Shown one piece after another: positions 1,781 through 1,809 of a stretch of 5,151 nt of DNA. Within the stretch, counting starts at the first letter, position 1; the number at the start of each line of letters is the position of its first letter. Made by a program: the position numbers and the translations under genes. The notes under the pieces are model-generated. The model searched no databases, was not told the DNA's origin, and saw only the letters and a program-made list of their open reading frames with translations. The stretch comes from a virus. Lineage: Duplodnaviria; Heunggongvirae; Uroviricota; Caudoviricetes. The stretch is taken from the IMG/VR virus record IMGVR_UViG_2537561714_000007; one strand, written 5' to 3'.

Positions 1781-1809
1781 ATAGTACGATATGTACTTCA
1801 CTTGGTCAA
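1781..1809 (-). promoter_or_regulatory. pL-like sigma70 promoter driving N (minus strand TTGACC, 17-bp spacer, TACTAT)
   Basis: -35 at plus 1804-1809 and -10 at plus 1781-1786; about 180 nt upstream of N; inverted repeat AGTAC-N5-GTACT (1783-1797) overlaps the -10. Confidence 0.5.

Follow-up and report, generated by a model that had tools for sequence, protein, structure and literature searches.

What controls the promoter in front of N in this lambdoid phage DNA? The stretch analysed (5,151 nt in all, here called the window) encodes a lambda-type CI, with lambda-type OR1, OR2, and OR3 beside it; on the other side of cI, the leftward promoter upstream of N lies over an inverted repeat of a different kind. 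An earlier note, made from the sequence alone, had pointed out this arrangement, giving the promoter as TTGACC-17-TACTAT and the repeat as AGTAC-GATAT-GTACT, and had offered three ways to account for it: the prophage is a mosaic, another repressor acts here, or the true OL/pL lies elsewhere. Promoter and repeat are both present, the former at 1809-1781 with nine of twelve consensus positions matched, the latter at 1783-1797 (AGTAC at 1783-1787, GATAT between the arms, GTACT at 1793-1797). The mosaic and the other repressor both agree with what was found, while a true OL/pL elsewhere is refuted by the canonical position of this one.

The reading proposed here, to which we would give a probability of about 0.9, is that the site is pL together with OL1, OL2, and OL3 of the immunity system of VT2-Sakai-type (“CI2c”) Stx phages. 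The inverted repeat does differ from the lambda operators, as the earlier note had said, but it is not a novel element: it is the annotated OL1 of the VT2-Sakai type. The whole pL/OL1-OL3 element is already annotated and known, and is ordinary within a common Stx-phage family. The features discussed are collected in Table 1.

Table 1. Positions of features in the window, with the evidence or description for each.
Feature	Coordinates	Strand	Description
N antiterminator	1319-1591	-	90 aa, PF25694 (111 bits, E = 3e-32); called as 90 aa in public genomes
Long hairpin in N leader	1617-1664	-	16-nt arms, 88% complementary; between nutL and N start
nutL, Stx/HK97 N family	1689-1734	-	boxA GCTCTTTAA 1734-1726, spacer hairpin, boxB TGGCTGAAAAGCCA 1702-1689
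pL of VT2-Sakai-type Stx phages	1781-1809	-	-35 TTGACC 1809-1804, 17-nt spacer, -10 TACTAT 1786-1781; consensus scan
OL1	1782-1798		TAGTACGATATGTACTT; overlaps -10 and spacer; the palindrome flagged earlier; putative operator by annotation
OL2	1807-1823		CAATACAATTTGTTCTA; overlaps -35; putative operator by annotation
OL3	1840-1856		TACAACGCTTTGTATTT; putative operator by annotation
Segment conserved with lambda (OL3 to end of rexB)	1903-2022	-	Includes intrinsic terminator 2018-1997
173-aa ORF, cI-OL spacer	2320-2841	-	No Pfam family match
DUF3024 pseudogene	3000-3335	-	One frameshift and one in-frame stop; tblastn with intact DUF3024 protein of L014
cI	3343-4056	-	237 aa, lambda-type HTH domain; exact protein of the O157:H7 thrW-side defective prophage
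Parent-switch interval	3443-3489		47 bp identical in both parents; 3' end of cI
Lambda OR3, OR2, OR1	4067-4130		OR3 4067-4083, OR2 4090-4106, OR1 4114-4130; pR 4104-4132
Lambda cro	4157-4357	+	
nutR, lambda-type	4365-4396	+	boxA CGCTCTTA 4365-4372, boxB GCCCTGAAAAAGGGC 4382-4396
cII, lambda-type	4476-4769 (within 4476-5151)	+	
Start of O, lambda-type	4802 onward, to 5151	+	

The lack of lambda operators on the left was established with a position weight matrix (PWM) built from six lambda operators and run over the window, a scan that the earlier note had proposed. It finds the OR sites (OR1, OR3, and OR2 at 20.7, 19.0, and 16.0 bits) and none in 1-3342, as had been claimed: the best score there is 9.3 bits, at 1409-1425, which is at the level of shuffled sequence (mean maximum 8.6, sd 2.3). 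The hexamer GCGGTG occurs at 1560, 2027, and 2756, in no case inside an operator-like 17-mer. By the same matrix, the scores at pL are -9.6, -9.9, and -4.7 bits for the three sites, vs. 15.6-22.4 bits for lambda's own OL1-OL3. On the right side, OR2 of the window is TAACACCGCGCGTGTTG, against ...CCGTGCG... in lambda, and position 4110 in the pR spacer is a G; the O157:H7 thrW-side defective prophage has both of these variants as well.

The match of the pL hexamers to consensus would not by itself identify a promoter: nine promoter-like sites were found in the window and 9.4 are expected from shuffles, so that a bare match of this quality is not above chance. The suggestion that this promoter is pL is borne out by its surroundings. 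It occupies the expected position, with nutL and N downstream; the first transcribed bases, CATCAGCAGGACGC, are those at the start of lambda's pL transcript, the predicted +1 lying near 1774; and the flank at 1903-2022 is ~87% identical to the lambda DNA to the right of OL3 (1978-2096 of the lambda locus, L003). In the Stx-phage record AP005153 (L001; window coordinates are those of L001 minus 2201), a promoter is annotated at the identical sequence (window 1781-1808), and three “putative operator” annotations correspond exactly to window 1782-1798, 1807-1823, and 1840-1856. The same three 17-mers are given as OL1-OL3 of VT2-SA in Table S1 of a published binding study (PMC10742460). Over 1300-3400 the window is 100% identical to AP005153, VT2-Sakai, Stx2 II, 1717, 2851, and about 40 other Stx-phage records; the PA-series phages show the same identity.

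The AP005153 record has three further annotated operators in its own cI-cro gap (TATTACGCTCTGTACTG, ATGCACAATGTGTATTT, and AAGTACATATTGTATTT), and the six together form one family, (A/T)GTAC-N5-GTA(C/T)T. A second matrix was built from only the three OR operators of the VT2-Sakai-type phage, and is thus independent of the window. With this matrix, 1782-1798 is the top site in the entire window (16.8 bits; maximum in 200 shuffles, 16.0) and 1807-1823 is the second (13.8 bits; maximum second-best score in shuffles, 12.7). With a matrix from all six sites, OL1, OL2, and OL3 of the window score 19.4, 18.4, and 15.4 bits. A candidate fourth operator at 1954-1970 (12.6 bits) was rejected, since it lies in a segment also conserved in lambda and ev099 and so is not immunity-specific. 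A search of the literature found no experiment in which the 231-aa Stx-phage CI binds these sites or represses pL; OL1-OL3 are putative operators, on the evidence of annotation, matrix scores, and the covariation described below.

The genes downstream of pL belong to the same system. The N family (PF25694) is distinct from that of lambda N (PF11438), and the ATG at 1591 is preceded by a GGAGG 7 nt upstream. nutL is built like the nutR of the Stx phage itself (CGCTCTTTGTAACAAC...TCGCTGAAAAGCGA). The N leader folds at -66 kcal/mol (z = -3.9), and its long hairpin resembles the RNase III site in the leader of lambda N. On the right, nutR is purely of the lambda type, so that the window has a second left/right mismatch, N and nutL being of the HK97/Stx type. 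Matched pairs of N and nut sites are the rule in natural phages, to judge from two mosaics. HK97, which has lambda immunity and an HK97-type N, has its own boxB in each of the two nut sites, with its mosaic joint right after cro at window-equivalent 4371. In the second, a metagenome scaffold from ENA (L065; 5,024 bp), a core of Stx-type cI, cro, OL, and OR is flanked by a lambda-type N and by lambda-type nutR, cII, and O, so that lambda N is paired with lambda nutR; the joint after cro is at window-equivalent 4363, close to that of HK97.

Near the left end, kil (88-252, minus strand) is a 54-aa allele, differing from the 47-aa Kil of the Stx phage by L38Q and a stop-loss. These changes (SNPs at 140 and 109) were considered as a sign that Kil had been selected against while pL was derepressed, an idea that was rejected, the allele being a common natural one: the 54-aa Kil is listed in 4,489 index blocks, including a prophage of O157:H7 EC4115. 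An independent contig (L068) has the same left-end alleles as the window, joined to Stx-phage sequence.

In a native Stx phage, the 231-aa CI would bind 17-bp sites of the family (A/T)GTAC-N5-GTA(C/T)T. Since OL1 covers the -10 and OL2 the -35, bound repressor should keep RNA polymerase off pL by occlusion. Once repression is lifted, a transcript would run from near 1774 through nutL and the leader hairpin to express N, of the HK97/Stx family, and after it ea10, cIII, and kil. The window's own CI is not cognate to these operators, as the earlier note had supposed: the sites at pL are of the Stx-type family, and the HTH domain of this CI is that of lambda. For this pL to be silenced, a Stx-type CI would then have to come in trans from a co-resident Stx prophage.

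The two repressors differ where this account would have them differ. The Stx-phage CI (231 aa) and the window CI (237 aa) are near-identical from about residue 101 to the end, and their HTH domains are essentially unrelated (the recognition helix region is QGGIGHWLRG in one of them). A common C-terminus with unique N-termini has been described for lambda “CI2a” and “CI2c” (PMC3430580). When all loci fetched for the analysis were scored with both Stx-type and lambda matrices, a Stx-type OL was accompanied by a Stx-type OR at 28 loci, and a lambda-type OL by a lambda-type OR at 17 (including lambda, ev099, HK97, seven look-up loci, L017, and three closed genomes in which the DUF3024 gene is intact); six draft contigs end before OL. 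The types are mixed only in the window and in one other record, a draft contig discussed below (L018). The matching of OL with OR at the other 45 of 47 loci implies selection against such hybrids.

This covariation holds across changes in the spacer between cI and OL, which in matched loci may contain rexAB, NYN, DUF3024 with a kinase, or the 173-aa ORF. The swaps bear on the idea that the palindrome is an operator for some other protein encoded in the window, such as the 173-aa ORF, or for a host factor. The ORF has no known family and lies between cI and pL; Stx phages and L017 (IMGVR_UViG_2778261064_000020, 2100-4460) carry the ORF with 100% conservation. L017, however, carries the window's spacer (1912-3489) at 100% identity together with the OL, N, and cI of lambda, while L029-L031, which have the NYN spacer and no 173-aa ORF, have Stx-type OL and Stx-type cI. 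These natural module swaps exclude the ORF as the relevant repressor and support the assignment of the operators. Across the loci compared, the operator family tracks the N-terminal domain of CI and nothing else, which also argues against any other regulator; as for a host factor, the palindrome as read does not match the LexA box, CTG-N10-CAG. Control by another window-encoded protein or a host factor is therefore extremely improbable. Two further observations on the spacer can be recorded here: a 7+7 palindrome, CAAGACTcaAGTCTTG, lies at 2900-2915, just upstream of the 173-aa ORF in its putative promoter region; and intact DUF3024 genes are found in eight closed E. coli genomes, where they follow a lambda-type cI, and in 933W-like prophages.

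The other alternative is that lambda-type CI recognizes Stx-type operators well enough to cross-repress pL, so that immunity is complete despite the difference in sequence. The binding assay that the earlier note had proposed is in effect already in print, done on the very same 17-mers. In EMSA with lambda CI, shifts were seen for all six VT2-Sakai operators, the KDapp values for OL1, OL2, and OL3 being 5.37, 4.02, and 3.67 uM (PMC10742460); the authors interpret these micromolar values as real recognition. In the same assay, KDapp was 0.21 uM for lambda OL1 and 0.35 uM for lambda OR1 (PMC10742460), so that the Stx-type OL sites (3.7-5.4 uM) are bound 17- to 25-fold more weakly than lambda OL1. 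All 12 heterologous sites, unrelated Stx2-I operators included, fall within the narrow band of 3.7-7.7 uM (PMC10742460); a term search of the main text of that paper found no non-specific DNA control. We read the micromolar affinity of lambda CI for these sites as close to non-specific binding, in keeping with the negative lambda PWM scores at pL (the highest being -4.7 bits) and with the absence of mixed OL and OR types from the 45 consistent loci. Cross-repression of a Stx-type pL by lambda CI is unlikely, and complete immunity by that route seems very improbable.

How a Stx-type pL came to stand beside a lambda-type cI is accounted for by a change of parent within cI: the sequence switches within the 47 bp at 3443-3489. 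To the left, 677-3489 is identical to the Stx phage. To the right, 3443-5151 is that of the lambda-immunity O157:H7 thrW-side defective prophage (L011, L013), except for a single Stx-type allele at 3580 within the lambda-type sequence. The six differences from L011/L013 in 3367-3442 are all Stx-type alleles, the last informative site on the Stx side being 3442 and the first on the lambda side 3490. The informative sites include 3424A, 3430C, and 3442T as Stx-type alleles and 3490C and 3514A as lambda-type ones, with a further site at 3526. By its alleles, then, the window is a mosaic of two parents, a Stx phage and a lambda-immunity O157:H7 prophage, and the mismatch of N and nutR comes from the same switch as that of OL and CI. 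The Stx phage itself differs from the window over 1-977 at five positions and one indel; a patchwork of three O157 prophages was considered and rejected, the others differing at 8-15 positions over the same stretch. The parents occur together in one O157:H7 chromosome, CP033605, where their loci (L011 and L025) are in inverted orientation.

L017 offers a comparison. It is a self-consistent lambda-immunity phage in which the cI-OL spacer and the 3' end of cI, as far as window-equivalent 3641, are of the Stx-phage type. It is, on this comparison, a double recombinant via the same shared segments, in which OL and OR still match.

The combination found in the window is rare. Among 5,426 closed E. 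coli genomes there is no whole-window match covering at least 80%; the junction segment is covered there only by eight divergent genomes with lambda OL, and the best match to the hybrid-specific 122-mer has 97.5% identity. The junction was not found in phage GenBank records, JGI metagenomes, or GTDB representatives, and was found in one IMG/VR contig only. This is a draft contig of 6.8 kb (L018) that shares the switch interval and is 99.8% identical to the window, its 11 SNPs falling on both sides of the interval. Exact matches to the proteins of cI, the 173-aa ORF, ea10, and kil are common, and the hybrid was not among the contexts listed for them. No reciprocal recombination product was found in the closed genomes; five have the NYN spacer with a Stx-type cI, and the three of these that were examined have a matching Stx-type OL and are consistent phages. 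Among 18 draft contigs with a Stx-type OR, three (L054, L056, and L057) end at window-equivalent 3452, 3612, and 3615. All three ends are in the shared C-terminal segment of cI, one of them within the switch interval itself, which points to a branch in the assembly graph at exactly this place; in genomes with both cI paralogues, the segment is a breakpoint that recurs in assembly.

Two explanations of the hybrid have to be weighed. It may be an assembly chimera, in which a short-read assembler crossed between prophages at the 47-bp stretch of cI; the source strain, probably O157:H7-like, would then carry both prophages, each promoter under its own repressor. Or it may be a genuine recombinant, formed when a Stx phage or prophage and a lambda-immunity prophage recombined through the homology at the 3' end of cI, with pL-N-kil silenced in trans or else left as a constitutive defective remnant. 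A chimera is what one would suspect where, as here, the parents reside in single O157:H7 chromosomes such as CP033605, the switch falls in an exact repeat, and neither the closed genomes nor the phage GenBank, JGI, and GTDB collections searched contain the junction. Each half is identical or nearly so to its parent, draft contigs of similar genomes break off in the same segment, the sole other instance is itself a short draft contig, and the product would be regulatorily incoherent twice over, in OL vs. CI and in N vs. nutR. The same junction in two records that have diverged by 11 SNPs over both halves speaks instead for recombination, as does the clean single switch in the alleles, which are not a random mix; and a search of IMG/VR, a collection that is incomplete, gave no contig with a Stx-type OR from the isolate that yielded L018.

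These phages commonly have mosaic joints where modules meet, and L017 and L065 are further recombinants that use the same shared segments; the lone Stx-type allele at 3580 could be a patch of heteroduplex repair. Because the cI copies in CP033605 are inverted, an exchange between them would yield a large inversion; large inversions of this kind are known in O157. Against a recombinant stand its absence from all the closed genomes and the large collections searched, the lack of a reciprocal product (the three NYN genomes examined being matched at OL), the matching of OL with OR in 45 of 47 loci, and the state in which kil would be left, unrepressed Kil being toxic. On balance, an assembly chimera has slightly better than even odds, and a genuine recombinant is a serious possibility that falls somewhat short of even. 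That the hybrid is a real chromosomal element of an O157-like strain, with a pL-N-cIII-kil operon silenced only by the CI of a co-resident Stx prophage, is a narrower proposition and a doubtful one.

If that last proposition were true, two prophages would be bound in a split-immunity dependency: if the Stx prophage were lost, kil would be derepressed, so that the arrangement would stabilize the toxin phage much as an addiction module does, and SOS induction would turn on N from a distant locus. More generally, a real hybrid would provide a natural example, and a rare one, of an early operon that depends on the repressor of another prophage. Its pL would escape the resident CI, so that only a Stx-type CI acting in trans, from a co-resident Stx prophage, would prevent expression of N, cIII, and the toxic Kil; lambda CI at OR would have no OL for long-range looping; and N might not act at nutR. 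In any case, the conserved segment encoding the C-terminus of CI is plausibly a hotspot for recombination between co-resident prophages, and demonstrably a point at which their assembly breaks; what look like heteroimmune hybrids in draft EHEC genomes should be read with caution. As to the operators, covariation over 45 of 45 self-consistent loci with four spacer modules amounts to natural-experiment support for the “putative” operators of CI2c, the repressor that controls the Stx2a phages of O157:H7.

Among known systems, the left side of the window is closest to the CI2c phages: at the promoter, operators, nutL, N, and spacer it is 100% identical to VT2-Sakai (Sp5), AP005153, AP005154 (Stx2 II), 1717, and 2851. 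In those phages, however, the adjacent cI has a Stx-type HTH domain and OR is of the same operator family, while cI, OR, cro, nutR, cII, and O of the window are lambda-type. OL/pL of lambda itself has the same position, between the timm-like conserved segment and nutL-N, and the same architecture, with three 17-bp operators, of which O1 covers the -10 and O2 the -35; its operators are of an unrelated sequence family, the pL sites of the window lacking TATCACCGC half-sites. HK97 and other wild phages of lambda immunity, mEp234 and HK106 among them, as well as L017, resemble the window in having lambda-type cI and OR beside non-lambda accessory modules, and HK97 has the same N family, but all of these keep lambda OL with lambda cI and an N matched to both nut sites, and the window does neither. 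The laboratory heteroimmune hybrids lambda imm434 and lambda imm21 are likewise mosaics made by exchange of immunity modules between lambdoid phages. In these viable hybrids the whole pL-cI-pR block is exchanged; the window splits the block inside cI, and OL is thereby separated from its repressor.
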